64,000 nt of DNA from Methanobacteriota archaeon (GTDB lineage: Archaea; Thermoplasmatota; E2; DHVEG-1). Position numbers and translations under genes: made by a program. Position 1 is the first letter of the stretch; each line of letters opens with the position of its first letter. Of the stretch, positions 1 through 64,000 are shown piece by piece. Location: positions 192,001 through 256,000 of the forward strand of contig CAVYNH010000006.1 in NCBI GenBank assembly GCA_963769885.1. The letters run 5' to 3'. The notes under the pieces were generated by a model, which searched no databases, was not told where the DNA came from, and worked only from the letters and a program-made list of their open reading frames with translations.

Positions 1-330
1 GTATTCGCCGATGGTGCTGCTGGGGATTTCTTCGAGGCCGCTGCGGCGTATTTTTTCTTCGATGGTGTCGAGGGCGGCTTCGAGTTGGTCGGGGGTGACG
101 GGGCGTTTTTCGAGGGCCTTTTGCATACCGGTTTTGATTTTGGTGCGGTCGTATTTTTGTTTGCGTCCGTCTTTTTTGATGACGTAGAGTGGCTCCATCT
201 CGATGGCTTCGTAGGTGGTGAAGCGGCGTTGGCAGCTGAGGCATTCGCGGCGTCGTCGGATGCTGTATTTGCCGGTGTCTCGGGAGTCGGTGACTTTCGT
301 CTCTGGCGTGTTACAGTAGGGGCAGTTCAT
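1..330 (-). CDS. nrdR: Transcriptional repressor NrdR (runs off window edge)
   Basis: Manual translation MNCPYCNTPETKVTDSR..SIRRRRECLSCQRRFTTYE..VIKKDGRKQKYDRTKI: Zn-ribbon with RRRREC plus ATP-cone. Confidence 0.95.
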   Translation of the reverse strand, partial: MNCPYCNTPETKVTDSRDTGKYSIRRRRECLSCQRRFTTYEAIEMEPLYVIKKDGRKQKYDRTKIKTGMQKALEKRPVTPDQLEAALDTIEEKIRRSGLEEIPSSTIGEY

Positions 331-343
331 CCATCCTCACTCA

Positions 344-359
344 CCACAAGATGTGGTAG
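344..359. promoter_or_regulatory. NrdR box (operator) in nrdR leader
   Basis: CCACAAGATGTGGTAG matches the conserved positions of the acaCwAtATaTwGtgt consensus; about 14 nt before the nrdR ATG and downstream of a minus-strand TTATAAAA box near 404-411. Confidence 0.7.
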
Positions 360-550
360 AAAACGGTCCGTTTTTCTACCGCGGATTGTATAGCGTGTGG
401 TTTTTTTATAACTTGCGGTTTTTTCAATATTGAGGACTGTAGACTATCATCATGCTAGCTTTTTGAATGGCTGTTTGGACTGCGTTTTTTGGTACTCGAT
501 GTGGTGGATTGTCGGGGTCTTTCTTAAAGTCTCGAGGGGGGTGGCTGAAA

Positions 551-766
551 CTATTCAGCGGCTTTGTCTCAAAAGTATTCAGCCGTCCCCCGAGATCGTT
601 TTTCTCGTCTTGAAGTGGCTTCAGGAGGAACCTTTGAGTTTTGAGACAACGCCCTATTCAGCGGCTTTGTCTCGAAAGTATTCGACCTCTCCTTAGACCA
701 TTTTCCTTGTCTTGGAGATGCTTCAGGAAGAGTCTTTGAGTTTTGAGACAACGCCCTATTCAGCGG
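551..766. repeat. Diverged ~102-bp tandem repeat (2 units plus a partial) with internal inverted repeats
   Basis: ctattcagcgg at 551, 654 and 756; ttgtctc(a/g)aaa and ttttgagacaa are reverse complements. Confidence 0.8.
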
Positions 767-949
767 GGTTCCCAGGGGCCTTCATGGGATGCAAGCATGT
801 ATGCAGATGGGTGTGCAGGTGCTCTGTGTGTTAATGCATCATTCCTCAAGAAAAATATCCTGGTTTCAGACGAAGCGATTCTTTCTTAGAAATATTGAAA
901 TACTTGGTTGCGATTCGAACAGTACAAAGAACTAGGAGGTAAGTGTACC

Positions 950-1564: not shown

Positions 1565-2197
1565 TTAGGTTATCTTGATTTCTTCGGCGTGGTCGACCGC
1601 TGTTTGCACAAGGGACGCGATGTCGAGTTTTTGTTCTTCGGCGTGGATGCGGTCGAGGCTGGCTCGAGTGGCGGGTTTGGGGGGGACGGCGGTGCAGCCG
1701 GTGGTGCGGACGGTGGAGAGTTCGTAGGTGCCGATGTCTTTGGCTATCTGGATGATGTCGTTTTTGTCGTAGCCGATGAGGGGGCGGAGGATCGGGATGG
1801 TGACGGCGTCTTCGATTGCTCTGAGGTTTTGGAGGGTCTGGCTGGCGACTTGGCCGAGGGATTCGCCGGTGACGATGGCCTCGGCTTGTTGTCGGCGGGC
1901 GATTTCTTGGGCGTAGCGCATCATCATGCGTTTGCAGAAGACGCAGGTGAGCTTCGGGTTGCAGTCTTGGATGTACCGTTGGAGGGCGGGCCCGTTGAGG
2001 ACGCGGTAGGCTTTGGGTGGTGAGGGGAGGAGATGGTGGAGGCGGGTGGCGACGGCGAGGAAGTTCTGGTAGTTTTGGTCGCTGTAGAAGGGCCGGTTGT
2101 CGGCGTGGACGAAAATGAGGTCTGGTGTCCAGTGGCGGATGATGTAGGCGGCGACGGGGGAGTCGATGCCGCCGGAGAGGAGGCAGACAAGTTTCAT
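1565..2197 (-). CDS. ThiI-like PP-loop sulfurtransferase (catalytic domain only, no THUMP)
   Basis: LLSGGIDSPVA, CVFCKRMM, GESLGQVASQTL, ILRPLIGYDK, third Cys in GCTAVP. Confidence 0.8.
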   Translation of the reverse strand: MKLVCLLSGGIDSPVAAYIIRHWTPDLIFVHADNRPFYSDQNYQNFLAVATRLHHLLPSPPKAYRVLNGPALQRYIQDCNPKLTCVFCKRMMMRYAQEIARRQQAEAIVTGESLGQVASQTLQNLRAIEDAVTIPILRPLIGYDKNDIIQIAKDIGTYELSTVRTTGCTAVPPKPATRASLDRIHAEEQKLDIASLVQTAVDHAEEIKIT

Positions 2198-2505
2198 GTG
2201 GTCTCGGTGGTAAGGTAGGTGAGGTAGTCGGGGAGTCCGCCGGTGATGGGGAGGGTGATGATGTCGGGGAGTTCGTAGGGGTGGAGGCTGCGGATGCGGT
2301 CGACGCAGGCCACGGCTTTGTCATCTGTGGTTTTGGCGATGAGGAGGGTTTCGGTGGCGCCTTCGACTTTGTGGTGCCAGCGGTAGATGGACTCTATTTT
2401 TGGGATGATGTTGGTGCAGGCCGCGAGTTTTTCTCTGACGATGGCGGAGGCGATGGTGCGTGCTTCTTGGAGTGAGCCTGTGGTGGTGTAGATGAGTTGG
2501 GCCAT
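2194..2505 (-). CDS. cutA: Divalent-cation tolerance protein CutA
   Basis: LAACTNIIPKIESIYRW, LHPYELP motifs. Confidence 0.92.
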   Translation of the reverse strand: MAQLIYTTTGSLQEARTIASAIVREKLAACTNIIPKIESIYRWHHKVEGATETLLIAKTTDDKAVACVDRIRSLHPYELPDIITLPITGGLPDYLTYLTTETT

Positions 2506-2509
2506 GGTC

Positions 2510-2956
2510 TCAGTGTGTTTTGTAGTGGGGGTGGTTTAATATGTTTTTTCGTGGGCGGTAGGGCGTGAGGGTGAGGGCCCGGATGGTGTTTGTGAGTTCT
2601 TTTTTTGGTCCGTGGATGAGGTGGCTGAGGCAGGCGCAGTCGCTGTTGCCGAAGTCGGGGATGAAGTCGTGGTGTTGGAGGAGGGCGGCGGCGATGCGGC
2701 ATTCTGTGAGCTTTGGGTTGGTGGTGGTGTAGGCGTGGATGGTGTGGGCGGAGGGGAGGAGGTAGTCGATGTGCCAGTGGAGCTTTTTTTCTGCTCGGAG
2801 GTGACGGGTGATGCGTTGGTCGAGGCCGTTGCGGGCGGAGCCGACGTAGACGTAGGTGGCGGTGGGGAAGTGGAGGGTCCTTTTCTTGCCGATGGGGAGC
2901 GTGAGTGGTCTGGTGAGGGTGAAGAGGAGGATGTAGGCTCCGGGTCGTGGTGGCAT
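2510..2956 (-). CDS. GIY-YIG (Uri superfamily, DUF123) nuclease
   Basis: GAYIL..YVYVGSA..RITRH..KKLHWHIDYL..FGNSDC.C.SHL. Confidence 0.85.
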   Translation of the reverse strand: MPPRPGAYILLFTLTRPLTLPIGKKRTLHFPTATYVYVGSARNGLDQRITRHLRAEKKLHWHIDYLLPSAHTIHAYTTTNPKLTECRIAAALLQHHDFIPDFGNSDCACLSHLIHGPKKELTNTIRALTLTPYRPRKNILNHPHYKTH

Positions 2957-3053
2957 TGTTGCTTGGGAGGTTTGATGGGGTTCTTTGATTTTTTGGTTCT
3001 TGTCGAAGGTGGTAAAAAGGGGGGATGAAATTTTGGGTTGGTTGGTGGTGTGA

Positions 3054-3419
3054 ATGGCGGGTCATGGTCTTGAGGTTGTGAAGGTGTCGTCTCTTGCGGA
3101 GGCGCGTGCGTTGTTGGTGGGGCTTGGGTGTGATCCGGCGGGGGTGGAGATCATGGTGCCGAAGGCGGTGCTGCGGGTGGTCCGGTTCCGTGGGGTGGTG
3201 CTGCAGGATGCGGTGATGGTGAAGCAGGATATGTTGTCGGTGGGGGGTGAGGTGGCGATCCCCCGGTATACGTACGATCGGATGGCGGAGACGGCGGATA
3301 TCCTGGTGTTTGGGACGGTGGCGCAGTTGGATGAGCTGGTGGTGAAGCTGCGGCGGCATTATCCGCGGATCCGTGGGCTGGCGGATGAGTTGTCTGCCGT
3401 CGTCTCGGGGTTCCGGTAG
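3054..3419 (+). CDS. Standalone protein resembling the N-terminal extension domain of some dihydropteroate synthases
   Basis: GCDPAGVEIMVPKA..VKQDMLSVGGEVA..ILVFGTVAQL motif. Confidence 0.55.
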   Translation: MAGHGLEVVKVSSLAEARALLVGLGCDPAGVEIMVPKAVLRVVRFRGVVLQDAVMVKQDMLSVGGEVAIPRYTYDRMAETADILVFGTVAQLDELVVKLRRHYPRIRGLADELSAVVSGFR

Positions 3420-3476
3420 GTTGCTCCTAAGATTTTTATCTGTGCTGGTGTTGTAGGTAGGTTGGGGTGACGTCAG

Positions 3477-4826
3477 TTGGAGAATCCTGTCTGCCCGTTG
3501 GAGTATCGGTATGGACGGCCGGTGTTGAAGGCGATTTTTGGGGAGTCCAGTAAGCTGCAGTATCTGTTGGATGTGGAGGCGGCGCTGGCGCGGGCGCATG
3601 CGGCGGTCGGGACGATCCCGAAGGCTGCAGCGCAGGAGATCTCGCGCAAGGCGAACACGAAATATGTGACGGCGCAGCGGGTCTCGGAGATCGAGCGAGA
3701 GACGAAGCATGACATCATGGCAGTGACCAAGGCGCTATCTGAGGCGTGCACTGGGGATGCGGGGAAGTACGTGCATCTGGGCGCGACGAGCTACGATATC
3801 GTCGACACGGCGAACGCGCTGCAGTTCGCGGCCGCGACATCTCAGATTTCTTCTCAGCTAAAAGAGTTGCGGAGGGTTCTCGTCCGTCTTGCGAAGGAGC
3901 ATCGGGACACGCTGATGCTGGGCCGGACGCACGGGCAGTCCTCGATCCCGATCACGTTTGGGCTCAAGATGGCGGTCTACGCTCTTGAGGTGGACCGGCA
4001 GCTGGAGCGGATGCATGAATGCAAGTCCCGGGTCCTCGTCGGCAAGATGAGCGGGGCGGTCGGCACCGGTGCGGCGCTGGGGAAGAACGCGCTGAAGATC
4101 CAGCAACTCGTCATGGCGGACTTGAAGCTCGGGGTTGAGGAGGGTCCGACGCAGATCGTGGACCGGGACCGGTACATCGAGCTGCTGTCGGTGTTGGCGA
4201 ATATCGCGGCGAGCATGGAGAAGTTCGGCACCGAGGTGCGGAACCTGCAGCGCTCCGAGATCGGAGAGGTCTCAGAGGCGTTCGAGGCGAAGAAGCAGGT
4301 CGGCTCGTCGACGATGCCGCAGAAGAAGAACCCGATCACGAGCGAGCAGGTCTGCGGGCTGGCGCGGGTCGTGCGCTGTTACGTGATCCCCGGATTTGAG
4401 GACGCGGTGCAGTGGCATGAGCGGGACCTGGCGAACAGCGCGGCGGAGCGGTTCATCCTGCCGCATTCCCTGATTCTGACGGATTGGATTATCACGCAGA
4501 TGATCGACGTCTTTTCGCATTTGAAGGTGAACCCGGAGCGGATGCGACAGAACCTGGAGCGGTCCCAGGGGCTGCCGATGGCGGAGGCGGCCATGAGCAG
4601 GCTCATCGAGAAAGGGATGGGCCGCGGGGACGCGCATGAGCTCCTTCGGGTCTCAGCGTTGAAGGCCTCGGAGTCCGGGGAGCAGCTGCTCGCGGTGCTG
4701 CGGCGGACGCCGAAGGTGACTGGGATGCTATCCGAAAAGGAACTGAAAGCGGCGATGGACCCCAAGAACTATCTGGGCGTCACCAGCGCGATCGTGGACA
4801 ACATCGTCAAGAAGCTCTCTCGATAG
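3477..4826 (+). CDS. purB: Adenylosuccinate lyase
   Basis: HLGATSYDI, GRTHGQ, GSSTMPQKKNP signature; TTG start after GGGGTGA. Confidence 0.95.
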   Translation: MENPVCPLEYRYGRPVLKAIFGESSKLQYLLDVEAALARAHAAVGTIPKAAAQEISRKANTKYVTAQRVSEIERETKHDIMAVTKALSEACTGDAGKYVHLGATSYDIVDTANALQFAAATSQISSQLKELRRVLVRLAKEHRDTLMLGRTHGQSSIPITFGLKMAVYALEVDRQLERMHECKSRVLVGKMSGAVGTGAALGKNALKIQQLVMADLKLGVEEGPTQIVDRDRYIELLSVLANIAASMEKFGTEVRNLQRSEIGEVSEAFEAKKQVGSSTMPQKKNPITSEQVCGLARVVRCYVIPGFEDAVQWHERDLANSAAERFILPHSLILTDWIITQMIDVFSHLKVNPERMRQNLERSQGLPMAEAAMSRLIEKGMGRGDAHELLRVSALKASESGEQLLAVLRRTPKVTGMLSEKELKAAMDPKNYLGVTSAIVDNIVKKLSR

Positions 4827-4904
4827 CGAGTCAGGAAGCCTCTCGAGTATTTCTCCTGGGAAAACGAAATGACCTTAAAGCCCATGACGGATTCCCCTGT
4901 CCAT

Positions 4905-5948
4905 ATGGATAAGCTGCAGACCCTCTGCCAGAACGCCGAAGAGATTGTCACCGTCGACGAACTGAAAACCGTCCTCCAGAAAGAGAAACCGAAGGCGTAC
5001 ATCGGCTTCGAGCCCTCAGGCACCGTCCACATCGGCTGGTCGATCTGCACCAACAAGATCAAAGACTTCCTCGCCGCCGGCTTCGACTTCACGGTCCTGC
5101 TTGCGGACTGGCACGCCTACATCAACGACAAACTCGACGGCGACCTCGACAAAATCAAGCTCTGCGGCCGCTACATGGAAGACTGCTTCGCCGCCATGGG
5201 CGTCCCCAAAGACAAGGTCCGGTTCGTCTACGCCAGCGACTACGTCAACGACCCCCGATACTGGGAGCTCGTCCTCAAGACTGCGAAAGCCACCTCCGTC
5301 GCCAGGGTCAGACGCGCCATGGACATCATGGGCCGCAGCGAAGACGAGGCCGACAAAGACCTCTCCAAACTCTTCTACCCGGCGATGCAAGTCTCCGATA
5401 TCTTCTACATGGACTTCGACGTCGCCTACGGCGGCATGGACCAACGCCACGCCCACATGCTCTGCCGCGAAGTCGCCAAAAAACTCAACCGTAAAATCCC
5501 GGTCGCCCTCCACACCCCACTCCTAAGCGGGCTGCAAGCCGGCGGCAGGATGAACCCCATCGAAGCCAAGATGAGCAAAAGCAAACCAGAGTCCATGATC
5601 TCCATCCACGACGACCCCGCAACGGTCAAGAAAAAGCTCGGCAAAGCCTTCTGCCCAGAGAAACAGACCAGCGACAACCCGATCCTCGAACTCTGCAAAT
5701 ACGTCATCTTCCCCGACCTCCACGGCGAACCGTTCATCCTGCATCGGCCGGAGAAGTTCGGCGGGGACCGCACCTTCCCCGACTACCAGTCCCTCGAAGC
5801 CGCGTACACCGAAGGACTCCACCCCCTCGACCTGAAGAACGCGACCGCGGAATACGTGAACCGAATCCTCGCGCCGGTCCACGAGTACTTCTCCCGGCAC
5901 CCCGAAAACCTCACGAAGATGCACGACCTCGGCATCATTCAATCCTAG
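4905..5948 (+). CDS. tyrS: Tyrosine--tRNA ligase (archaeal type)
   Basis: YIGFEPSG, HIGW, YPAMQVSD, GGMDQ, KMSKS; start could be 4869 or 4884. Confidence 0.95.
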   Translation: MDKLQTLCQNAEEIVTVDELKTVLQKEKPKAYIGFEPSGTVHIGWSICTNKIKDFLAAGFDFTVLLADWHAYINDKLDGDLDKIKLCGRYMEDCFAAMGVPKDKVRFVYASDYVNDPRYWELVLKTAKATSVARVRRAMDIMGRSEDEADKDLSKLFYPAMQVSDIFYMDFDVAYGGMDQRHAHMLCREVAKKLNRKIPVALHTPLLSGLQAGGRMNPIEAKMSKSKPESMISIHDDPATVKKKLGKAFCPEKQTSDNPILELCKYVIFPDLHGEPFILHRPEKFGGDRTFPDYQSLEAAYTEGLHPLDLKNATAEYVNRILAPVHEYFSRHPENLTKMHDLGIIQS

Positions 5949-5989
5949 CGGTATCGAAAAAGGGAAAAAGAAGACGAGGAACGACGACG

Positions 5990-6295
5990 TTACTTCTTCT
6001 GCTGTTGTTCCCGCAGCTTCTGCAACTCCCGCTCCGTCTGCCGCTCGACATACATCGGCCCGGCGAAGGTGCCGACGCCATGCGCCGCAAGCCCGATCCC
6101 CCACCCAATCATCGGAAAGGCCGGCCAGAAGAAGTAATTACCAGCGGTTGTACTCGTCCACCACCAGATCCCAATGAGCATAGCGTTCACGAGGATGTAG
6201 ACGACGAGATGGATGTAGAATCCGACCTTCGCCTGCGCGACCTTCTCAGCCTTACTCCGGAGCTCCTCTTCAGTAGCCGTTCTACTCACCAACAC
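5990..6295 (-). CDS. 2TM-domain membrane protein
   Basis: FYIHLVVYILVN..FFWP..GWGIGLAAH pattern. Confidence 0.8.
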   Translation of the reverse strand: MLVSRTATEEELRSKAEKVAQAKVGFYIHLVVYILVNAMLIGIWWWTSTTAGNYFFWPAFPMIGWGIGLAAHGVGTFAGPMYVERQTERELQKLREQQQKK

Positions 6296-6363
6296 CTCAA
6301 TAACGCCTCAAAACTGATAAGCGTTTGCATACCAAAGAGAAAAAAGGGGGAAAACAGCAGCCC

Positions 6364-9289
6364 TCACTTTGAGAGCTGCGGCACGTACGGGGTAAATGCA
6401 GGATCCCCGTAGAGATGGTACTCGAAGAACGACTGGAACTTGTTGTCCATCTGCGGGCTCTTGCCGGACTTCGCCATGGACGAGTACAGCTGCGCATCCA
6501 ACGACAGAATCCCGGTCGTCGTCAGCGGCGGCGACCACCAGACGTCCCACGGGCCATCCTCAGGGAGATACTGATTCCGCGCGTCCCGGAACGCAAGCCC
6601 CAGACTCGTGTTCCCCTTCTGCAGGTACCCCAGCATGTCCGCGTAAATCTTGAAGCCGAAATGCATGTCCGGATAATCTCCCTTGGCGACCGCACGCTTG
6701 TTGACCAGGTACCGATACAGCGTCTGACCGGGCAGGTCATACTTCGAGTTCTTCGGCTCTAGGTAGCCGCCCGCGATGTTCGACGATGTCGTCGCCGAAA
6801 TCATAGCGGCGACTCCCGAATGCAGGTACGCCTGGGTGATGCTCTGGGTCGGATACATCCCGTCCAGCTTGCCGCAGATGCAGCTTTCAATCCACATGAA
6901 CGACGGCCCCAATTGCATAGTCTCGACGTTACGGGGGCTGTAGCAGCCGTGGGCACCCAGCGACGTCCCCGGGCCGTACCCGAAGATGGAGACGACCTGC
7001 GCTAATATCTTGGGGAGGATGCCGTGCGGCAGGCCCAGCCCAAGGCTCGTAGTCCCGACGTCGGTCATGCTGAAGAGATGCTGGTTCCCATGGGCGTTGG
7101 CGAAGATGAGATTGGAGTCTCTCCTGGACCTCCTTGCCTCGGACGATGTCAGCGCCGATCTGCGTCCGTAGCTGCCGCGGGGAGAACAACAGTCGGTTCA
7201 GGATGTTCGCTGTTTTCATCTCCCGGATCGCCTCGTTAGAAAATCCCTGGTACGCAGCCTCGTTCTCGCGGATGTAGGTCGTGTCGTAGCCGAGGCCCTC
7301 GACGATATGCGTCATCGTCTGCCCGTTAATCACGGACGCCCCGGTGGTCAGCTTCATGGGCTCGCCGTGGCCCTTGATAATCCCGAGCATCTCACCTAGC
7401 ACCTTGTATCGGACGAGCGGCTCCTGGAAATCGTTGCCGCCGCCTAGCATCACGGCCGCCTGGTCCTTCCAGTCACCGAGGCCGTTGATGATGCGGTCGT
7501 AGAAGATGGTCCGGTCGATGAGCGCGGAGGCATCTTGGGTATCCCAGCCGGTGATGCGTCCGATGACGTTCTCCTGTTCAGGATACTTTTCTGTGGATGC
7601 GCTGTAGAGGTCCGGGGCATGGTTCGACCAGTCGCCGGGGTTTGGGTCGATGTCGGAGTAGATGAAGTCGCTGGGGATCCCGCAGCCCCAGAAGTAGCCC
7701 ATGTCCTGGATCGAGATAGGCTCGATGGAGCTGTTGTAGAGGTATTGCGGCAGCATCGTGCCGTCGCCGACCAAGGCGATGTACATGGGGCTGTTCGTGT
7801 AGTATTCTTTGAGTTCTTTGAGGGCGGCGCTGCCGCTGTCGTCGTTTGGCCCCAGATCGATCCCGGCGATGTTCGCGAGGAGGGCGTTGATCTCTTTATG
7901 GATATTGAAGACGTGCGTGTTCGATGCCTCGACGAGGCGAGGGTTCTTGCGTGGGAGTGAATATCCTGGGGAGGTCTGCCCCAGGTATAATGTGCTGTCG
8001 TTGGCAGCGAATGCGAACTCCGGTCGGCCGAAGACGAGACCCTGGTGGTAGGCGGCGAGGTACGGGGCGAGGGAGGACAACTTGGGGATCATCGGATAGC
8101 GGGAGTCGTCGAGCTTTTGGATGGTGACCTCGGCTTTCACCTGGCCGGTTTTGGAAATCACCCAGGTTGGTGAGGTCTGGATGTTGTATCGGACGCCGCC
8201 GCGGTCGTAGAGGACGCATTCGGTGTAGGTGCTGTCCTCGATGATCTTGCCGGTGGAGTCTCGGATGGCGACGCCGCCCATGTTGGTGCCGCCCGCGTAG
8301 AGCTCCATCTTTTGGAGGTTGGCGGGTTCGTCGGGGAGGTCTGGTCCGACGAAGAAGATGACGTTGTCGCCGAGGAGGTCCGCGTTCTCCGGGTTCATGT
8401 TGATGCCCTTGAATTTCACGAGGGCGTATTTGTAGTCCTGCGGGATGGGGAACGAGCCGAGCGTGAGGTTGTTGCCTTTCAGCATGCCGCCGACGGTGCT
8501 GAGGAGCATGGTGGTCGACGTGGTTTTCATGGTCTTCGGCCCGATGGTCATGTTGACTTGGGCGAGGACCCGGGGCGGATAGGCGTCGAGGGGGTTGGTG
8601 AGGACGAGGTAGTTGGTGGAGCCGAAGCGGTTGTTGATGACCGTGATCTGGGCGTCGAGGGCGTCTTCGGCGGTGGTGATGGTGTAGGGGTTGCCGACGG
8701 TCCTGATGTGGGTGCCGCAGACGATGCTTTGTTCGACGCCGAGGTCGGTGAGGGCGGAGAGGGATTGGGTGCTGTTGGGGTCGATGATGATGATGGGGAT
8801 GCTGAGGTAGGCGGCGATGGGGGCGGCGAGGACGCCGAGTTCGTAGCCTTGCTGGGAGTCTTCGATGAGGAGGGCGGCTTTGCTGTGCTGCCAGTAGCGT
8901 TGGGCGAGGTCAAGGGACCATTGTTCGGGGGTCTTGGTGTCGTCGATGATGAGGTCGACGGGGATCTTGATCTGGTCGTTGATGATGCGGACGACGTCTT
9001 CAGAGGGCGAGGTGAGGTTCTCTACATAAAGGGGGACGATGGTCTGGGTGCCAGTGGCATCGTAGTGGACGGCGAGGGGGGTGCCGATGAGGGGGTAGAA
9101 CTGGTTTTGGTTGGAGACGGTGATGGCGGTGGGGGTGGTGTTTTTTAGTTGGCCGGTGATGGTGCTGAAGGAGTCGATGCTGATGTTTTTTCCGGAGGCT
9201 TTCATGGGGATGTAGGTGTAGATGCCGATGGAGGCGATGATGAGGACGATGACTCCGGCTATCACTATGAGCTTGTCGTTTTTCTTCAT
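6364..9289 (-). CDS. Membrane-anchored C25 (gingipain-like) cysteine peptidase; apparent frameshift at about 7120
   Basis: N-terminal TM; YIALVGD, PSDFIYSD, IGRITG; after the frameshift SNLIFANAHG, WIESC, YHLYGDP; joins ORFs 6929..9304 and 6364..7068. Confidence 0.7.
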
Positions 9290-9455
9290 TATTATCGCCA
9301 TCACTGGTTGAGATTGTGTTTTAAAAACATATTCCTATCTTTCTATATAATATTTTCCTTTTATATATTATTGTTCGGTGGGGTGGTGTTGGTGGGTTGG
9401 TGTTGGGAATGTTTAATAACGGTGATTTCCATTACCCGGGTTTGAGGACGAGTTT

Positions 9456-9824
9456 ATGGCGGATGAACAGCAGCTTTCCCCTCAGTTGCAGGATCAGATT
9501 TCTCGGTTGCAGCAGACGCGTGCGCAGGTGCAGATGTTGGCCCAGCAGCGGCAGCAGGTTGAGCTTCAGCTCCGTGAGGTGGAGGAGGCCTTGAAGGAGG
9601 TTGAGGCGGCGGGGGAGAAGACGCCGATCTACAAGAGCATCGGCGCGATCTTGGTGAAGGCGAAGGGGAAGGCTGAGGTGAAGAAGGAGCTGGAGGGGAC
9701 GAAGGAGTCGCTGCAGCTGCGCAAGACGACGCTGGAGAAGCAGGAGGGGCGGAGTCGGGAGAAGCTGACGGAGCTGCAGAGCAAGGTGGAGCAGGGGCTG
9801 AAGCTGGCTGGTCAGGGTGAATAG
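9456..9824 (+). CDS. pfdB: Prefoldin subunit beta
   Basis: Coiled coil, IYKSIGAILVK hairpin, 122 aa. Confidence 0.92.
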   Translation: MADEQQLSPQLQDQISRLQQTRAQVQMLAQQRQQVELQLREVEEALKEVEAAGEKTPIYKSIGAILVKAKGKAEVKKELEGTKESLQLRKTTLEKQEGRSREKLTELQSKVEQGLKLAGQGE

Positions 9825-10186: not shown

Positions 10187-10194
10187 GGCTTTTT

Positions 10195-51826: not shown

Positions 51827-51832
51827 AATCTC

Positions 51833-52348: not shown

Positions 52349-52386
52349 CGTCCTATGGATAAAAGAAATTCCGGAGTCTTACTTAA

Positions 52387-53684: not shown

Positions 53685-53714
53685 ACACACCAGCCAGGAG
53701 GCAGACCCCGCTAT

Positions 53715-55809: not shown

Positions 55810-56401
55810 TCAGATGCTTCTCCTGGATGGTCCCGTGGGGAGTCTGTTCGGTGAAGATCTGGCCGGTGAAGGTGTAAATCTTGGTCTGCGGCATGACCCA
55901 GGCGTCGGCGGTGAGGCCTGCCTTCATGCAGGCGTAGCCGAGGTAGGTTTCGATGTCCCAGTGTTCTTCGACGGGGACTTGGGGGAGGAGGAGTCCTTTG
56001 TAGAAGCCTTGTTCGATGATGAGGCCGTCGCGGCCGATGCGGATCTTGGCGGGAATCTCTGGGGGCGTGGAGGTCTTGAGCGGGCGGGGGTTGGAGAGGA
56101 TGGTGACCTCGACGATGATATGGTCGAGTTCGTTTGCGCGGAGCGGGGGGAAGCGGGGGTCATGGGTGACGGAGTGGGCTGCCTCTTCGAGGGCGTTTTT
56201 GAGTGTGAGGTCGGGGTAGGGGATGCCGATGCAGCCGCGGAGGTCGTGGGCGGGGTAGGTGTGGAGGGTGACGAAGACGCCGTGTTTTTCGTCGAAGTGC
56301 TTTCCGAGGGTGATGGTGGTCGGTGGGCGGTGTCCGACGGTGCTGGTGACGATCTGGCGGGCGTAGTGGACGGCGGTGGTTCCTTCAGCGTCGGTGAGCA
56401 T
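55793..56401 (-). CDS. AMMECR1-domain protein
   Basis: GVFVTL..LRGCIG..DPRF..GLLLPQV..CMKAGL. Confidence 0.92.
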   Translation of the reverse strand: MLTDAEGTTAVHYARQIVTSTVGHRPPTTITLGKHFDEKHGVFVTLHTYPAHDLRGCIGIPYPDLTLKNALEEAAHSVTHDPRFPPLRANELDHIIVEVTILSNPRPLKTSTPPEIPAKIRIGRDGLIIEQGFYKGLLLPQVPVEEHWDIETYLGYACMKAGLTADAWVMPQTKIYTFTGQIFTEQTPHGTIQEKHLNGPQH

Positions 56402-56472
56402 GGCGTGTGCTGTACGGTGAAGGGGAATAAAAAATGTTGGGTGAGGCGTGGTGTCCTCACCAGGGGGTAGGG

Positions 56473-59400
56473 TTATTGTACCCGTGCCATCAGGATGTTG
56501 AAGGTCAGCTGGGGGACGTCGGCCTTGACGTCGAGGTGGAGGGCGGTGGCGTTGCGGTAGGTGATATTCTCGTTGCCCTCGCGGAGGGTTGAGATCGCGG
56601 TGACATTGTAGGCGCCGGGGGCGAGCTCGATGTGGTAGATGCCGGTGGCGTTGGCGGTGGCGACTGCGCGGATGGCGGTGTTGTTGACGGACCCGTCTGG
56701 CTGGAAGGTGATGGTGGTGTTCTTGATGTTGTGGGTGGAGTCCGCGGTGGTGCCGGTGACGGTGATGGAGACCTTCGTGAGGGCGATGTTGTAGGTGACG
56801 GGTGCCTGGCCGGGTGCGATGGCGAGCTTGCTGGTGTAGGTGTAGACGAGCGTGCTGCCCTGTTGGTTCCTGACGGTGACGTTGTAGGCGCCGGGCTGGA
56901 GCTGGGTGGTGTAGCTGCCGTTCTGATCCGAGGTCGTGGTCTTTTGGACGGCGGTGTTGTTTTCCACGTTGGCGGTGGGGGTGAAGCTGATGCTGATGCT
57001 GCCGACGCCGGTGCCGTTGTGTGTGGCTTTGCCTTTGATAGTGATGGGGGCGTACTCCAGGGAGATGTTCATCTTGAGGGTGACGTTCTCTTTGAGGGTC
57101 ACGGGTTCTTCGCTGACGTATTGCAGGGCGCCGGTGGTGGTGTTGCGGAGGGATGCGTTGATGGTGTATTTGCCGGGGACGAGTACGGTGAAGCTGTACT
57201 GGCCGGTGGCGTCGGTGGTGAGGTGGCGTGAGGGGACCTGGGCGCCGCTGAGGGTGGTGTAGTAGAGGGTGACGTTGACGTTGGGGGTTGCTTCTCCGAG
57301 GTCGACTTGGCTGTTGTCGTTCTTGTCGGTGTAGATGATGCCGTTGATGCCTGCGGGTTTGGGTTTGGAGACGTTATGCCAGAAGGCCGGGCTTTGGCGG
57401 GTGGCGGGTTCGACGTTGACGGCGCTGGTGTTGAGGGTGTAGCCGTCTTGGATGGCGGAGATGTTGTACTTGCTGGGCGGCAGGCTGGGGAAGTGGTATC
57501 GGCCGTTGGCGTCGGTGCTGGCGTCGTTGGTTCTGCCGAAGAACAAGTCGTCGAGGTGGACGGTGATGTTGGCGAGGGGGGTGTCGACGCCGGGGTCGTA
57601 GCTGCCGTTGTTGTTGGTGTCGGTGTAGACGTAGCCGGTGAGGTTGGAGTTGTTGATGTTGATGGTGTAGTTGCGGTGGTAGTTGGTGCCGGGGGTGCGC
57701 ATGCCTTCGGCGTCGGTGATGGGGCTGTAGAGGCTGTTGTTGGTGTCGTTGAGTCGGAAGCGGTTGAGGAGGAGTTCGTCGCCGGGGTAGGTCATGATGA
57801 CGGCGACGTTGCCGCCGGGGGCGAGGGTGCTGAAGGTGCCGTTCTGGTCGGTGTAGACGTTGTCGTGGGGGAAGCCGTAGTTGTCGAGGATGATGACGTG
57901 GACGTAGGGCATGGGGGCGCCGGTGGCGTCGCGGACAGTGCCGTTGAGGAAGGCGCCTTCGTAGTACTTGGCGATGACGACGGCGCTTTTCCCGCCGCCG
58001 TAGTAGGGGTAGGGGGAGACGTACTCGGTGGAGAAGTGGAGCATGGCGTAGGTGGGGAGCTGCTGGTTGGGGGTCTGGAGGTTGCCTTGGGCGTCCTGGG
58101 TGGCCGGCATGCCGATGTAGGTCTTGTAGAACATGGTGTTGAAGTAGTCTTGTTTGTAGACGGTGGTGGTGCCGGTGATCTGGATGCGGTTGCGGACCTG
58201 GGAGGTCATGTTGTTGATCTCTTGGGCGCTCCAGGTCTGTTCTTGGCCGGGGGTGTTGTCGGCGTTGAGCTGGTAGCCGGTGTATTTGACCTGTATGAAG
58301 GCGTCTTCGGGGTCGGCGAGCTGGTGTCCGGTGCTGCGGAGGGCGTAGAGGGTGTTGCTTTTGTCGGCGAGGAAGGCGAAGATGTTGAAGATCTGTTCGT
58401 CGTAGCCTTCAACGCCGTAGTAGCGGATGCTTTTGCCGGTGCTGTTCTGGATGTCGTGGTAGAACCAGGTGATCTGGTCGTCGGTGAGGCTGTCGTTGAG
58501 CATCTGGGCGGCGTCGAGGTAGACGGCGTTCTCGGGCCATTGGCTGCCGACGCGGACGTGTTGACTGAGGTTTTTGTCGTATTGGGCACCGATGGGGGCG
58601 TTGTAGGAGGGGGAGGACTTGGGGTCCTGGACCCATTGGATGAGTTTGCTGGCGTTGGTTGTGGTGGTGCCGTTGGCGGTCGTGTTGAGGTATTTGTTGA
58701 GGGTGTTGACGACGGGCTGCGTGAGGTGTCCGCCGTGCGTCTGGCTGTTGGCGAGCAGGAGGCGGGTGATCCAGACGGCGACGCCTTCTTTTTCGCTGAG
58801 GGCGGTATGGAAGTTGGCCGCGGCGGGGATGCCGTCCTGGAAGTTGTCGGCGACCGTGGGGTGTCCGCCGACCGCGACTTCATAGAACCCGTAGTCCCAC
58901 CAGGAGATGTACGCGGGCCTGTCGGCGGGGGAGAGGTTCGTGTCTTGTTGGCGGAGCCAGTCGTAGGCGCCGACCCAGTATTGTTCCTTGTAGGAGCTGG
59001 AGCCGAAGGCGCCGGTGAAGTTCTGGCCGAAGACGTCGGTTTTAAGGTTGCTGGTGCCGTTCTTGGTGATGGCTGAGGGGACGGCCGCGTCGAGGGCGAG
59101 GAAGGCGTTGGGGACGAGGATGACGAAGACGATGAAGAAGGCCCCGATGATGTGGGTGATCTTGACGCCACGGCGTAGCCCGCGGAAACCACCGCCGGCG
59201 TTCTGGATGTTCTTGATCATCTTTTTGTAGTCGAACTTGTCGATGATGAACCAGATAATCATGCCGGCGAGGAGGGCGATGACGGGGACCATGTCGTTGA
59301 GGAACCGGCCGGCGGTGGAGGTGAGCCAGAGCTGGACGACGAAGAGGGTAAGGATAAACATGTAGTCACGGCGGTCCCGGTGCTGGATGAACTTCCAGAT

Positions 59401-60687
59401 GAGGAGGATGAAGCCGAACCAGGCGAGCCAGTAGACCGCGGGACCGTACGACATGACGGTCCTGCTGATGTTATAGGTGCCTGCCTCGGCGATGGTCAGG
59501 GAGACTTTGTTGCCGTAGATTCCGGTGCCGTACAGGATGTTGGAGATCCGGCCCAGGGGGGCGAGGAAGTTGGGGATCTGTGAGGGGAATGCCCGAACGA
59601 CGTAGAGGAGTCCTGCCGTGAGTCCGCCGAAGATGGCGATGAGTGGGATGGTGATGATCCAGGGGATGTTCTTCCATTTGAAGGCGAGGCAGGCGAGGCC
59701 GAAGATGGTGACGCCGGCGGCGAGGAAGAACGGGAGGGTGAACAGGCCGAGGGGCGTGGTACTGCTGAGCCGGACGACGGGGTAGGAGACGAGGACAGCG
59801 GTGAACATCATCAATGCAGAGCTTTGGACGAACTGGACGCTGGTTTTCTTCAGGACGAGGTCGATGATGAGCTGGACGACGATGTAGACGGCGAGGACCG
59901 CGTAGAGGAACTCGGCCTCGGTCCAGACCATGGAGAGGGCGGCGAGCGGGACGCCTGCGAGGACGCCGTAGAGGATGGAGCGGATGCGGTCGGTCTCTTT
60001 GATGCTTTTGATGAAGAAGGCGAAGGTGAGGACGTACAGCAGGAGGTTCAGGGAGTCGTGGTCGAAGAGGGCGAAGGCGGAGCCGTGGCCGGAGCTGATC
60101 TCGATGGGGATGATGGCGATGAGCAGGGCGGCGATGATGCCTTCTTTGCGTCCGAAGAGCATCTTCCCTATATAGTACACCGGGAAGACGAGGAGGGCGC
60201 CGAAGAGGGCGGGGACGAACTGCATGGCGAAGCCTAATGCGTCAGTGGGGCTCATGAAGGGGAGGAGGAGTTTGCTGAAGCTGATGGCGGACATGACCAG
60301 GAGTGGGGCACGACCGCCGGTGACGCCGAGCGGGTAGTTCAGCAGCGGGTCATTGGTGTAGTAGTAGGGGAATTTGCCGGTTGCTGATGTCTGTTGTACT
60401 AGTCTCATGTTGTAGTACGGGTCGGGGCCGGAGAGGTAGTATTTGGTGGTGAGGTCGGTCCCCTGGGGGTTGATGTTGGCGTTGGAGACGATGTTGAAGT
60501 AGCTGTTGAAGAAGAGGACGAGGAAGAAGGTGGCGATGAGGGTCACGCTAATCCAGAGGTTCTTGCGGGCTTTGATGCTGGCGAAGGAGAACCGGCGTCT
60601 CTCTGGTGCCGTTTCCTGGTGCGCTGGCTGGCTGACGGTGGTTTGCGTGGACGTGGTTTGCGTGGTTTGCTGTGCGCGCTTCCGCAT
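56473..60687 (-). CDS. aglB: Oligosaccharyltransferase AglB (STT3) with long C-terminal Ig/carboxypeptidase-regulatory-like repeats
   Basis: DPYY, FDHD, TIAE, SWWDYG, many TMs; repeats G.VYTD.NNNG.YD.G..TDANGRY.F. Confidence 0.9.
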   Translation of the reverse strand: MRKRAQQTTQTTSTQTTVSQPAHQETAPERRRFSFASIKARKNLWISVTLIATFFLVLFFNSYFNIVSNANINPQGTDLTTKYYLSGPDPYYNMRLVQQTSATGKFPYYYTNDPLLNYPLGVTGGRAPLLVMSAISFSKLLLPFMSPTDALGFAMQFVPALFGALLVFPVYYIGKMLFGRKEGIIAALLIAIIPIEISSGHGSAFALFDHDSLNLLLYVLTFAFFIKSIKETDRIRSILYGVLAGVPLAALSMVWTEAEFLYAVLAVYIVVQLIIDLVLKKTSVQFVQSSALMMFTAVLVSYPVVRLSSTTPLGLFTLPFFLAAGVTIFGLACLAFKWKNIPWIITIPLIAIFGGLTAGLLYVVRAFPSQIPNFLAPLGRISNILYGTGIYGNKVSLTIAEAGTYNISRTVMSYGPAVYWLAWFGFILLIWKFIQHRDRRDYMFILTLFVVQLWLTSTAGRFLNDMVPVIALLAGMIIWFIIDKFDYKKMIKNIQNAGGGFRGLRRGVKITHIIGAFFIVFVILVPNAFLALDAAVPSAITKNGTSNLKTDVFGQNFTGAFGSSSYKEQYWVGAYDWLRQQDTNLSPADRPAYISWWDYGFYEVAVGGHPTVADNFQDGIPAAANFHTALSEKEGVAVWITRLLLANSQTHGGHLTQPVVNTLNKYLNTTANGTTTTNASKLIQWVQDPKSSPSYNAPIGAQYDKNLSQHVRVGSQWPENAVYLDAAQMLNDSLTDDQITWFYHDIQNSTGKSIRYYGVEGYDEQIFNIFAFLADKSNTLYALRSTGHQLADPEDAFIQVKYTGYQLNADNTPGQEQTWSAQEINNMTSQVRNRIQITGTTTVYKQDYFNTMFYKTYIGMPATQDAQGNLQTPNQQLPTYAMLHFSTEYVSPYPYYGGGKSAVVIAKYYEGAFLNGTVRDATGAPMPYVHVIILDNYGFPHDNVYTDQNGTFSTLAPGGNVAVIMTYPGDELLLNRFRLNDTNNSLYSPITDAEGMRTPGTNYHRNYTININNSNLTGYVYTDTNNNGSYDPGVDTPLANITVHLDDLFFGRTNDASTDANGRYHFPSLPPSKYNISAIQDGYTLNTSAVNVEPATRQSPAFWHNVSKPKPAGINGIIYTDKNDNSQVDLGEATPNVNVTLYYTTLSGAQVPSRHLTTDATGQYSFTVLVPGKYTINASLRNTTTGALQYVSEEPVTLKENVTLKMNISLEYAPITIKGKATHNGTGVGSISISFTPTANVENNTAVQKTTTSDQNGSYTTQLQPGAYNVTVRNQQGSTLVYTYTSKLAIAPGQAPVTYNIALTKVSITVTGTTADSTHNIKNTTITFQPDGSVNNTAIRAVATANATGIYHIELAPGAYNVTAISTLREGNENITYRNATALHLDVKADVPQLTFNILMARVQ

Positions 60688-60771
60688 GGAGTCTCACCTT
60701 GAATTGGATACACCGTAAAACCATGGCCTTATAAATACCTTATCTCTGGTCTATCTGGAGAAGAGCGTGGT

Positions 60772-61632
60772 TTAGGCGAGGTGGACGTGCAGTGCGGCGA
60801 TGCTGGGGGCGACGCTGACCTTGCTAAACTCGCTTTCTATCGTGTTGGTGGCGATGATTTCGTTGACGCCCGCGGCCGTGAGCTTCTCCTTGGCTTGTCC
60901 GGCGAAGAGGCCGTGGGTGCAGGCGACGTAGACGTGCTTGGCGCCCTGGTGTTTGAGTTCTTTGATGGAGGTGGCCATGGTGCCGCCGGTGGAGATGATG
61001 TCGTCGAGGATCGCGACGGTCTTGCCCTGGACGTCCAGACTCTTGGGATGTATCTTCACCGTGTTGCCGTCGATGCGGGTCTTTTCGAGGTAGTCGCTGG
61101 GGATGCCCATGAGGCGGGCGGCTTCTTCTGCGCGGTCTTTTGCGCCCATGTCCGGGGCGAGGACGAGGTCGATGTCTTTCCCTTTGAGGTATTCCGCGAT
61201 TTGGGGGACGGCGCTGCAGCTGCGGGCCGGGGTCGTGAAGAAGTCCAGGAGTTGTTCCTTGTGGGGGTCGACGGTGATGACGTCGTCGGCGTGGACGCTG
61301 ATGTGCTCGGCCATGGCGCGGGCGCTGATGGCCTCGCCGTCCTCGAATTTCTTGTCTTGGCGGCTGTAGCCGAAGTAGGGGAGGATGACGCTGATTTTCT
61401 TGGCGCCGGCCTCGCAGACGGCGTCCTGCATGATGAGCAGCTCGATGATCTTGGAGTCGGGGTACGCGGTCTGGACGATGAGGACGTCCTGGCCTTCGAT
61501 GGGTTCTTCGATGCGGACGTAGAACTCGTCGTCCGGGAAGCGCTTGAAGGTGGTTTTCAACAACGGTTGGTTTAAAAGTTCGGATAACTCGGCGGCGATG
61601 GACGTCGCGGATGTGCCCCCAAGGATGAACAT
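60772..61632 (-). CDS. prs: Ribose-phosphate pyrophosphokinase
   Basis: FPDDEFYVR, YSRQDK, APDMGA, DDIISTGGT, ACTHG. Confidence 0.95.
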   Translation of the reverse strand: MFILGGTSATSIAAELSELLNQPLLKTTFKRFPDDEFYVRIEEPIEGQDVLIVQTAYPDSKIIELLIMQDAVCEAGAKKISVILPYFGYSRQDKKFEDGEAISARAMAEHISVHADDVITVDPHKEQLLDFFTTPARSCSAVPQIAEYLKGKDIDLVLAPDMGAKDRAEEAARLMGIPSDYLEKTRIDGNTVKIHPKSLDVQGKTVAILDDIISTGGTMATSIKELKHQGAKHVYVACTHGLFAGQAKEKLTAAGVNEIIATNTIESEFSKVSVAPSIAALHVHLA

Positions 61633-61764
61633 AACTCCGGCCCTGGGGAGTCGTAAACATTCGCGTCCTTTTCAGGGTTTCGTTATGAGAAAGAAGGAGG
61701 AACTTGGGGTTTTCGTCCTTAGTATTAAATAGGGAGTCGTGCAATAGGTCTACGGGGCTCTGGC

Positions 61765-63357
61765 ATGGGTAGTTTCAAGGAATTGCGGATTCATCTGTGG
61801 AGGATCGTCGCCCTTTGCATCATCATGATTGTTTTGGATCCGATTACGTTCTCTGGTTTGGCTGAGCCAAAGGTATTAAAAAATGAAAGTGGTGGCCTCT
61901 TGGATTCTGCGTGGCCTATGTACTGCCACGATGTCAAGCATACAGGGAGAAGCCCGTATGCCCCCGCTGGTAATTGGCGTGTTGAAAAATGGCATTTTCA
62001 ATTGAATTGGGGCATTACAAGATGCTCTCCAGCTCTTGATAAAAATGGCACTCTTTATGTTGGATCAACGAATGAAGATTATTTCTATGCGCTATATTCG
62101 AATGGGACAGAAAAATGGAGATTGCCTATAGGCAGTGTTCAATCCTCACCGGCAATCGGTGAAAATGGCATTATATATGTTGGTTCTGATTCCGGTCGAC
62201 TTTATGCGATCTTCCCTAATGGTACAATCAAGTGGTGGGTTTCAGTTGGACAAGGATGGGCGTGTTCATCCCCTGTCATTGATACCAATGGAATCATTTA
62301 TTGTGCCTCAGTCATAGGCAGCAGACTGGTCGCATTCTATCCAAACGGGACCATCAAATGGTCCTTCTCTGCTCAATCCTACATCTACAATGATCCAGCG
62401 ATTGGCGATGACGGAACCATCTACATTGGCTCCAATGATGGGTATCTCTACGCCCTCTACTCGAATGGTACTTTGCGATGGAAGTTCTATGGTGGCGGGC
62501 AATTGGGCGTCGCCTCTGCCTCCATCGCCGATGACGGAACAATTTACGTTGGAAGCACCGGAGGCTATCTACATGCCCTTGCTCCAAATGGGACTCTCAA
62601 ATGGAAGGTATACACCGGCTGGATTGGTGGCTCGACCCCGGCAATCGCAGAAGATGGCACCATCTACGTTGGCGACCAAGACAATCATCTACTTTATAGC
62701 ATCGCTCCGAATGGAACCATCAACTGGTCATTTAAAACCAGAGGAGACATCATGTCCTCATCGGCCATTGACTCCCACGGGAACATCTACTGCTCCTCAG
62801 GTGATGGTAACCTCTATGCCTTCAATAAAAATGGTAGCCTCCGTTGGACGTTTCCTGTCGCTAATCTAGGAATCGAATCCTCACCAGTTATCGCTGCTGA
62901 TGGTACTATTTATATTTCTGGTCGTTTCGAACCCTCAGGTTCCAATCCAAGCCACTCGCTACTATATGCACTCGGATCAATTAACGACACCCAACCAACC
63001 GTCCCGACCATCACCGGCACCGAGAACGGCCACGTTCGCCGGACCTACGAATACACTATCACCGCCACCGACCTGGACAACGACACCCTCAGCTACTACG
63101 TGGACTGGGGCGACGGTACCACCACCAACTGGACCGGCCCCACACCCTCCGGTCAGAGCATCATCCAATCCCACACCTGGCACAAGCGCGGCACCTACAC
63201 CGTCAAAGCCAAGGCACGGGACCAATACCTCTGGGAGACCGACTGGGCCACCCTCACCATCAAAATGCCCTATGAACCACCACGCTTCCCAATCCTCCAC
63301 TGGCTCCTCAACCGTTTCCCCGACGCTTTCCCCCTGCTCCACAAACTCCTCGGGTAA
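61765..63357 (+). CDS. Secreted PQQ-like beta-propeller plus PKD protein (paralog of 13201..14802)
   Basis: GGLLDSAWPM..HD.KHTGRSPYAP, propeller repeats, PKD, tail PRFPILHWLLNRFPDAFPLLHKLLG. Confidence 0.85.
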   Translation: MGSFKELRIHLWRIVALCIIMIVLDPITFSGLAEPKVLKNESGGLLDSAWPMYCHDVKHTGRSPYAPAGNWRVEKWHFQLNWGITRCSPALDKNGTLYVGSTNEDYFYALYSNGTEKWRLPIGSVQSSPAIGENGIIYVGSDSGRLYAIFPNGTIKWWVSVGQGWACSSPVIDTNGIIYCASVIGSRLVAFYPNGTIKWSFSAQSYIYNDPAIGDDGTIYIGSNDGYLYALYSNGTLRWKFYGGGQLGVASASIADDGTIYVGSTGGYLHALAPNGTLKWKVYTGWIGGSTPAIAEDGTIYVGDQDNHLLYSIAPNGTINWSFKTRGDIMSSSAIDSHGNIYCSSGDGNLYAFNKNGSLRWTFPVANLGIESSPVIAADGTIYISGRFEPSGSNPSHSLLYALGSINDTQPTVPTITGTENGHVRRTYEYTITATDLDNDTLSYYVDWGDGTTTNWTGPTPSGQSIIQSHTWHKRGTYTVKAKARDQYLWETDWATLTIKMPYEPPRFPILHWLLNRFPDAFPLLHKLLG

Positions 63358-63405
63358 GCAAAGTTTTTAAAAGGGAGACCGGTTAATTTGCCCTGAGTGG
63401 ATGCG

Positions 63406-64000
63406 ATGCGAAAGTACACCCTATCGGTTATCGTCCTAAGCCTCACCCTCCTTCTCCTCCTCCCTAATCCAATCACCACCGCCGACACCCCCACTAGCCT
63501 CGTCGACGCCACCATCACCGCCGCGTACCAAAACGCCACGAGCCTCCACGTCACCGCCGCTATGCTCGTCCATCGCATCGACAACATCTTCGGCACCACC
63601 TACACCCAAACCGACATCGACCACCTCACCAACCCCGACGACCTCGGCGCCATCAAACTCAGACTCCACGACAGCCTCACCACCCAACTCCAACACACCT
63701 TCCCCAACGCCTTGATCACCCCCGAAGGCCGCCCCGTCTACGCCACCCCCTACTTCACCGACGACCTCACCATCACCCTCACCACCCAATACTTCGACAC
63801 CACCATCACCAACATCACCACCCTGATCACAGGCCTCCTCGACAGCGGCACCGACATCACATACCACTACACCCTCACCAGCACCCCAGGCTGGAACAGC
63901 ACCTACCTCTTCACCATCCCCCCAGCCCTCACCCTCACCACCGCCACCACCACCCGTCTCTCCCCGGATAACCGCCAAGTCACCTGGATCGCCAACAACA
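63406..64000 (+). CDS. Secreted hypothetical protein (runs off window edge)
   Basis: Manual translation MRKYTLSVIVLSLTLLLLLPNPITTADTPTSLVDATIT.., Thr-rich, no stop noticed before the window end. Confidence 0.7.
   Translation, partial: MRKYTLSVIVLSLTLLLLLPNPITTADTPTSLVDATITAAYQNATSLHVTAAMLVHRIDNIFGTTYTQTDIDHLTNPDDLGAIKLRLHDSLTTQLQHTFPNALITPEGRPVYATPYFTDDLTITLTTQYFDTTITNITTLITGLLDSGTDITYHYTLTSTPGWNSTYLFTIPPALTLTTATTTRLSPDNRQVTWIANN

Follow-up and report, generated by a model that had tools for sequence, protein, structure and literature searches.

A kilobase-scale keto/amino strand-bias field, independent of gene direction, with steps at variable gene junctions in an archaeal genome

In a window of 64,000 nucleotides (nt) from an archaeal genome (contig C6, positions 192001-256000; 2.09 Mb in 7 contigs, here G000, with C3, C6 and C7 denoting contigs), the plus strand alternates at kilobase scale between blocks rich in G and T and blocks rich in C and A, whatever the direction of the genes it carries. 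This strand-bias field is real, genome-wide and inherited, and its strength varies across the family. Its flips from G/T to C/A lie preferentially at junctions of variable gene content, and on the replication origin oriC. We regard the field as a variant of a known and still unexplained keto/amino skew, for which recombination filtered by the endonuclease NucS/EndoMS is the most likely mechanism. Throughout, keto refers to G/T and amino to C/A, and a step is a switch from G/T to C/A on the plus strand, read from left to right.

Genes were called with a Markov model (approximately 80% coding), and a latent plus-strand field was fitted to all degenerate third positions of the genome, using a codon baseline tuned by cross-validation with a shallow optimum. 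The GyrA relatives were Thermoplasmata, including SM1-50 and M11B2D, which we take to belong to the DHVEG-1/MBG-D group. Metagenomes containing the sequence came from wetland and sediment, and no RNA data set was listed among the sources of the sequence. We compared G000 with a close strain (SRR29366192/204, approximately 96% identical), a sister species (G001) and other relatives (G004, G005, G008, G014, G015, G020, G022, G042 and G088).

A preliminary description of the window had marked ten G/T and C/A blocks by eye, and all ten carried the sign assigned to them. G+T content was 0.64-0.71 in the G/T blocks (GC skew +0.30 to +0.47, TA skew +0.17 to +0.34) and 0.31-0.41 in the C/A blocks (GC skew -0.17 to -0.48), with the C/A block at 33.7-43.5 kb weaker and broken up by the gyrB intein. 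At four-fold-degenerate sites the skew reached +/-0.9-1.0, and on the extreme C/A strand these sites were composed of C 0.885, A 0.07, G 0.02 and T 0.02. Genome-wide, 1-kb windows had a standard deviation (SD) of 0.24 in GC skew and 0.18 in TA skew, with a mutual correlation of +0.78, and 150-nt windows had mean absolute GC and TA skews of 0.22 and 0.19 (both above 0.15; r 0.57). The autocorrelation showed a trough at 5-6 kb, the SD fell to 0.03 at 50 kb, and a spectral peak near 12.8 kb indicated a quasi-period of 12-13 kb.

This skew exceeds what proteins and codon usage require. When the same window proteins were rewritten with genome-wide codon usage, the SD of 1-kb GC skew was 0.147 (maximum 0.154), compared with 0.26 in the window itself. 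The proposal that the bias reaches the proteins was also confirmed. Genome-wide, Val was two-fold up and Thr two-fold down in coding G/T zones relative to C/A zones, also when measured against orthologues, and in the window the T/N/I fraction was 0.09 in GGGPS versus 0.23-0.26 in the ABC permease, the DUF362 protein and AglB. Such a shift of protein composition along with the field is what selection on codons, amino acids or DNA structure would give. However, the effect was strongest at four-fold sites, it was present in intergenic DNA, which tracked the field with GC skews of -0.34 to +0.36, and orthologues in other genera took either sign. Selection, taken together with artefacts of assembly, therefore seems very improbable as the origin of the field.

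Assembly artefact as such was ruled out by the agreement of independent assemblies. The switches at 46, 54.6 and 33 kb, which might have marked the joints of a chimeric contig, were bridged by independent contigs from the approximately 96% identical strain and from a 99.9% identical assembly. The same skew profile was found in a species at approximately 84% amino-acid identity, and the profile of G001 correlated with that of G000 (r 0.64 over 234 orthologues). G014, G015, G020 and G022 bore fields of their own, and other relatives were nearly flat. In one marker gene the four-fold keto skew was +0.74 in G020, +0.64 in G014, -0.53 in G042 and -0.35 in G088 (loci L179, L181, L186 and L185), and approximately 0 in most genomes of the SM1-50 genus; by this gene, field sign and strength are lineage-specific. 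The bridging contigs, together with the fields kept or separately borne by relatives, establish the field as real, inherited and variable within the family.

The field follows the physical strand and not the gene, as had been claimed. Regression of skew on gene strand gave an R2 of only 0.21. ORF 3054 and pfdB, both on the plus strand, had third-position GC skews of +0.75 and +0.77 beside minus-strand neighbours at -0.86 and -0.78, and the divergent AbrB (minus) and gyrB (plus) genes had a C/A-rich plus strand in common. GGGPS and IMPase were opposite in skew to pyrC and AglB, and the flip near 13340 lay inside a single gene (13201-14802, plus strand), where the number of G+T per 60 nt ran 47, 50, 43 and then 20. 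Across gene junctions of all three types (divergent, convergent and tandem), plus-strand skew correlated at 0.72-0.87.

Within genes the field climbed (+0.3 logit/kb; 216 significant rises versus 83 falls), and at intergenic gaps it fell. Crossings from G/T to C/A were enriched at divergent gaps (26% versus 6%), which the returns avoided. The earlier suggestion that maxima lie near promoters held only in part: an approximately two-fold enrichment at divergent starts under the first baseline became weak after baseline correction, and the strong peaks at 53.5, 57.6 and 48.1 kb were intragenic. In cross-validation, gap-centred kernels with G/T to the left and C/A to the right outperformed kernels at random positions and kernels of opposite polarity. 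The kernel ramped over approximately 1 kb, held a plateau to 3.5 kb and ended by 5-7 kb. Half-kernels with free left and right weights reached a cross-validated fit of 24787 (ceiling 26569), compared with 22078 for tied kernels, 22115 for opposite polarity and 22138 for kernels shifted by 2 kb. The left and right weights of a gap were almost uncorrelated (r 0.11), whereas simulation with tied kernels returned 0.66 and no gain from freeing the sides. From the better free-sided fit and the uncorrelated weights, the units are best seen as tracts 4-5 kb long that extend in one direction, with the C/A strand running 5' to 3' away from the gap, in a linear kernel model that treats sources at gaps and intragenic sources ending at gaps alike. 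Randomly oriented independent point sources were rejected, as adjacent peaks alternated in sign in 72-73% of cases. When peaks and steps were scanned for a motif with contiguous and gapped k-mers, every hit was either an echo of base composition or an AT-rich promoter word.

Transcription-coupled damage or repair, including antisense transcription, could account for coding strands being C/A-rich on average (mean -0.25) and for kernels that ran only downstream fitting better than kernels that ran against transcription (20653 versus 13050). We nevertheless think it a poor candidate with little chance of being correct. In addition to the low R2, the skew continued across junctions of both divergent and convergent genes (r 0.72-0.75), the coding strand was G/T-rich, up to +0.9, in about one gene in three, the weights of tandem gaps were similar with and against transcription, and there was no relation to gene conservation.

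Steps were preferentially associated with variable gene content. In a synteny-break test using 684 kb of G001, step size at divergent gaps was 1.11 where the adjacency was broken and 0.16 where it was conserved (p 9e-4), and at tandem gaps 0.51 versus -0.20 (p 6e-5). Regression gave a break term of +0.73 (t 5.0) and no effect of gap length, and the break effect was seen beside both gene ends (5' +0.46, 3' +0.39). Within the window, the approximately 96% identical strain had different DNA at each of the flips at 4.8, 13.1-13.3, 49.8 and 62 kb. When islands of foreign composition stood in for variable loci, the effect was weak and confined to the neighbourhood of 5' ends.

The second landmark was oriC. 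The canonical origin, at C6:261743-261925, approximately 5.8 kb to the right of the window, consists of an AT-rich element flanked by an origin recognition box (ORB), GTTCCAGTGGAAA at C6:261901, and a second degenerate ORB, with cdc6 downstream and nucS directly behind. Here the field S passed from +2.0 to -0.8 (D 2.7) with co-oriented genes on either side, a step within approximately the top 5% of intergenic steps at this one site. G001 had inverted ORBs (L058:13092 and 13250) and the same step. Beside cdc6 in six further family genomes, no ORB turned up within one mismatch, and in G000 few gaps if any had ORB-like words apart from oriC (11 intergenic near-matches, z 3.3 with oriC counted). 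Replichore skew was absent: in blocks of 50-120 kb to either side of oriC, the mean field stayed within +/-0.25.

The preliminary description had inferred a local strand-specific mutational or replication process, such as many dispersed initiation sites. The first part, a local process independent of gene strand, was supported; dispersed initiation is a live rival, and the main one to the recombination reading set out below, given the oriC step and the absence of replichore skew. DNA synthesis, mostly one-way and extending approximately 4-5 kb, would start from AT-rich gaps as well as from oriC by initiation, R-loop priming or strand displacement; the nascent strand would drift to C/A, possibly via a NucS filter, and variable loci would be a consequence or a correlate. 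This fits the ORB-bearing oriC lying on a step in both G000 and G001 between co-oriented genes, the lack of any replichore-scale offset, the higher weights with transcription and at AT-rich gaps, and the same third-position polarity at Haloferax ori3 (PMC12999951). A stochastic fork-competition model also preferred the same polarity and still reached 20989, or 79% of the ceiling, although this was a worse fit. Dispersed synthesis nonetheless appears less likely than not. Left and right tracts were independent, and steps were not symmetric and bidirectional as in the N-domain type (r 0.11 versus 0.66 simulated). Steps tracked variable gene content and not promoters, conserved divergent promoters were nearly step-free, and no ORB or other motif was found at the remaining steps. 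Neutral-zone substitution rates were too low, implying that the process is absent in places, and there was no link to gene conservation as a proxy for expression.

Substitutions between strains bear on the nature of this process. The strain contigs represented one haplotype or were identical to G000, leaving only two distinct haplotypes to compare, and the outgroup was saturated. Four-fold divergence from the close strain was 0.073 in extreme zones and 0.060 in neutral zones. Under an assumption of pairwise balance, the rates on the C/A strand relative to neutral zones were approximately 5x for T>C, 6x for G>A, 12x for G>C and 5x for A>C, with C>T at 0.45x and A>G at 0.7x. Rates in neutral zones were well below the mean of the two strand-specific rates and did not represent a 50:50 mix of both spectra, which argues that the process is local. 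Single-nucleotide polymorphisms (SNPs) were distributed as a mosaic, with a variance in density of 120 around a mean of 11, and the three tracts of greatest divergence (3.3-5.9, 15-16 and 45.9-49.7 kb) adjoined variable junctions. SNP direction clustered in same-direction keto/amino runs (autocorrelation z 5.1), and no such clustering was present for purine or GC direction in this comparison. The A/C share showed no difference between tracts of high and low divergence.

Breaks or nicks at variable junctions followed by 5' to 3' resection would leave exposed 3' tails, which could turn G/T-rich through deamination of C and A and bypass of abasic sites, as in the mitochondrial heavy strand. The polarity agrees with 3' tails at a gap, C>T and A>G were raised on the G/T strand, break-prone sites would also rearrange readily, and an Mre11-like gene is present. 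We consider resection improbable all the same. Deamination is insufficient because transitions alone would, judging from the four-fold composition, leave half purines, and cannot yield the 9% purines of the C/A strand. Searches of five family genomes for NurA and Y-family polymerase gave no match, UDG and EndoV are present, and resection leaves the association with nucS unexplained.

This association was seen in the gene content of the family. nucS is present in the family, and its product aligned with solved EndoMS structures and kept the nuclease catalytic motif. NucS/EndoMS was the one mismatch endonuclease detected, and for MutS and DprA there was no family match over the cut-off. Field strength had a median of 0.17 in relatives with nucS (n=16) and 0.05 in those without a match (n=12; naive p 1e-4), with the genomes scattered on the tree. 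None of the 12 relatives that gave no good match to nucS exceeded 0.15, and six nucS genomes and G005 stood at 0.23-0.48, among kin that are not independent and genomes that are incomplete. Skewed and flat relatives did not differ in their content of Cdc6, MCM, PolD, PolB, TopoVI, RNase HII, RadA, Fen1, Mre11, UDG or EndoV. HhH-GPD glycosylases occurred in all five family genomes checked, and both gyrase and TopoVI were present in the five family genomes searched, none of which gave a histone match. The main PolB, shared by the order as a whole (C6:605458-608328), matched Pfam DNA_pol_B weakly (E ~1e-7) and had DVGAMYP as motif A, and a PolB2-like gene at C3:58950-61214 was without clear exonuclease and motif C matches. 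EndoMS prefers G/T, G/G and T/T mispairs and hardly acts on C/C, A/C or A/A (PMC4838380; PMC6159521). In Mycobacterium smegmatis, an incoming oligonucleotide has its G:T, G:G and T:T mispairs rejected toward the template, in patches of 5-6 bp, and others pass (PMC11551744).

The specificity of NucS/EndoMS thus splits mispairs along the same keto/amino line as the field, and nucS adjoins cdc6 and oriC here. We infer a heteroduplex origin, a donor route and a direction of repair in this archaeon. Double-stranded DNA from relatives would replace variable cassettes in an ends-out fashion, its 3' tails invading the conserved flanks, the left one with the minus strand and the right one with the plus strand, to form kilobase-long heteroduplex. 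NucS would reject donor G/T alleles on the invading strand and donor C/A alleles would pass, so that the newly laid strand would deliver C/A and not G/T alleles because of the mispair specificity of NucS. Through repeated rounds the plus strand would become G/T-rich in the left flank and C/A-rich in the right, regardless of gene direction, and the gradual returns would fall within conserved blocks. Ends-out replacement would in this way give the observed step, its independence of gene direction and the independence of its two arms. The transversion asymmetry at four-fold sites on the C/A strand fits a filter that covers G:G. We tentatively favour, at somewhat short of even chances, the reading that strand-biased gene conversion on NucS-filtered recombination heteroduplex has left the field as its footprint over the long term. 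The wider claim, that NucS/EndoMS acting on heteroduplex of kilobase length drives a strand-dependent biased gene conversion that rewrites the silent sites and amino acids of the entire chromosome, is possible and held with greater reserve. Recombination and nascent-strand filtering could coexist. Phage phiC31 showed no end skew and hence provided no calibration of polarity.

Several observations weigh against recombination filtered by NucS. This model does not predict the step at oriC, where gene adjacency is conserved, no route of DNA uptake was identified, and template-directed repair is known from a mycobacterium only. Many nucS relatives were flat, so nucS is insufficient alone, and the association itself comes from non-independent kin, incomplete genomes and unequal samples. 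C was favoured over A approximately three-fold beyond the prediction from NucS specificity. Breaks relative to G001 had no effect on the step at convergent gaps, and elsewhere the break effect, approximately 0.45 logit per side, was small compared with the field SD of 1.2. A transcription-orientation term of approximately 0.55 persisted, which may be partly residual codon baseline, and its size is uncertain because the baseline optimum is shallow. Divergence was not significantly related to absolute skew (p 0.23 under circular shifts), and local field shifts, whatever their mechanism, could also produce the same-direction SNP runs. The recombination model does not account for the step at oriC, the transcription term, the surplus preference for C over A or the flat nucS relatives.

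Along the plus strand of the window, the first G/T block (1600-4700) peaked near 3.0 kb over a divergent promoter and formed the left arm of a variable slot between purB and a class I tRNA-synthetase gene (tyrS-like, PF00579). The flip lay in this gap (4826-4905, gap weight 2.07), where gene lists showed extra genes in the approximately 96% identical strain and the sister species (loci L211/L206). The gap is a swap slot for genes of NosD/beta-helix surface proteins in these two and is empty in G000. A tract of high divergence from SRR29366192/204 (3300-5950, 7-10%) contained same-direction keto/amino runs of 32:8, then 18:46. The C/A block at 4900-7000 returned gradually to G/T at 7000-8000 within the peptidase C25 gene, and the G/T block at 8000-13340, with four-fold skew up to +1.0, covered genes of both strands. 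A variable cassette slot followed at 13127-15600, where strain and species alignments ended at 13125-13127 and the field flipped abruptly near 13340 (gap weight 2.40, D 2.48). Secreted PQQ-repeat/PKD/FG-GAP proteins are swapped at this slot, which has a paralogous cassette at C6:270-272 kb. The C/A block at 14400-19600 (four-fold skew to -1.0) carried the ABC ATPase/permease and DUF362 protein genes, and the G/T block at 20000-25200 rose slowly to a peak near 24.2 kb. At its step to neutral stood a tRNA-containing non-coding island (25301-26190). Three tRNA genes, at 19722-19903 and 25416-25489, were otherwise the only Rfam matches in the window.

The flip at 32686-33400, in a divergent gap, was variable at species level only, with the adjacency broken in the sister species and intact in a 97% strain. 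The C/A block to its right (33400-43500) had peaks near 34, 38 and 42.5 kb and was neutral over the gyrB intein (approximately 39.3-40 kb). Within gyrB (38051-40552) the intein spans approximately residues 435-630 and is low in GC and unskewed; the gyrB of G001 is short enough to be intein-free, and long gyrA frames in several relatives suggest inteins there. The G/T block at 45900-49700 matched a tract 4-9% divergent from the close strain and formed the left arm of the 49.8 kb junction, a flip in the topA/purE divergent gap (49709-49855) with other DNA in the close strain. To the right of topA the close strain has a DDE transposase (L216:6714-7556) where G000 carries purE. The C/A block at 50000-54500 was deepest near 53.5 kb in GGGPS, the coding strand of which is G/T-rich, and its sign was the same in G001 and G022 and weakly so in G008 and G004. 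It returned gradually to G/T at 54500-55400 within pyrC, bridged by one independent contig. The G/T block at 55200-61560 lay over AglB and gave way, across a variable region at the flip (61560-63405), to the start of a C/A block at 63000-64000. The peptidase C25 gene (6364-9289) and the gene at 27732-29040 were split relative to strain contigs, and a second cdc6 (C7:394333-395515) and PolD DP2 (C3:45323-48815) were frame-split in G000, with long open frames in the relatives checked; these splits make indel errors in the G000 assembly likely.

Animal mitochondria show an asymmetry of heavy and light strands in which one strand is G/T-rich and silent-site bias is near-saturating. The present field shares both features; unlike the mitochondrial asymmetry, it alternates in sign hundreds of times per chromosome and requires transversion asymmetry. 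In GC-biased gene conversion, a fixation bias arising from recombination and mismatch repair overrides protein preferences. The bias proposed here would be of the same kind, differing in that it opposes keto and amino bases and is set by the invading strand, and because it depends on the invading strand it would yield strand skew and not a change in GC content. Replication skews are known from bacterial replichores, mammalian N-domains and yeast origins, at scales of 100 kb to Mb. Like these, the field is a sawtooth with abrupt steps, one of them at oriC, and partial co-orientation with genes, but its half-periods are approximately 5 kb and its amplitude almost saturates, either side of a step varies independently of the other, and the polarity is the reverse of that in bacteria. 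A 2026 survey reported little strand-specific mutation in archaea and an inverted third-position polarity at a Haloferax origin, as found here (PMC12999951); the field contradicts the generalisation of that survey.

The nearest parallel is with GRINS, duplicated regions of more than 500 bp, about 1 kb long, with another copy at above 80% identity in their cluster or genome (2021, PMC8256042). Both have intense GC and TA skews, positively correlated and of either sign, with a maximum at third positions, abrupt changes and the same amino-acid shifts. GRINS are linked to gene conversion, as is proposed here, and Streptomyces, their richest host, uses NucS (PMC11109965). Unlike GRINS, the field lies in single-copy core genes, genome-wide and in an archaeon, with 0 of 8268 strongly skewed bins (0%) in duplicates and none in the window. 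The published role of NucS/EndoMS is the lowering of replication transitions (PMC4838380, PMC6159521, PMC11551744). In the open literature (subscription papers being outside our scope), we found no such field in Thermoplasmata and no compositional domains driven by NucS or heteroduplex.

If NucS acting on heteroduplex is responsible, the unexplained skews of GRINS would gain a concrete mechanism and biased gene conversion a second axis, with one rule accounting both for GRINS and for the other keto/amino patches of microbes that carry NucS. The skew would in that case map the arms of past recombination, the geometry of which could be read from a single genome. If dispersed synthesis is instead correct, the chromosome would be replicated from starts about every 10 kb. 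On either reading, analyses of codon usage, dN/dS, binning and phylogeny in these lineages are distorted by the field.

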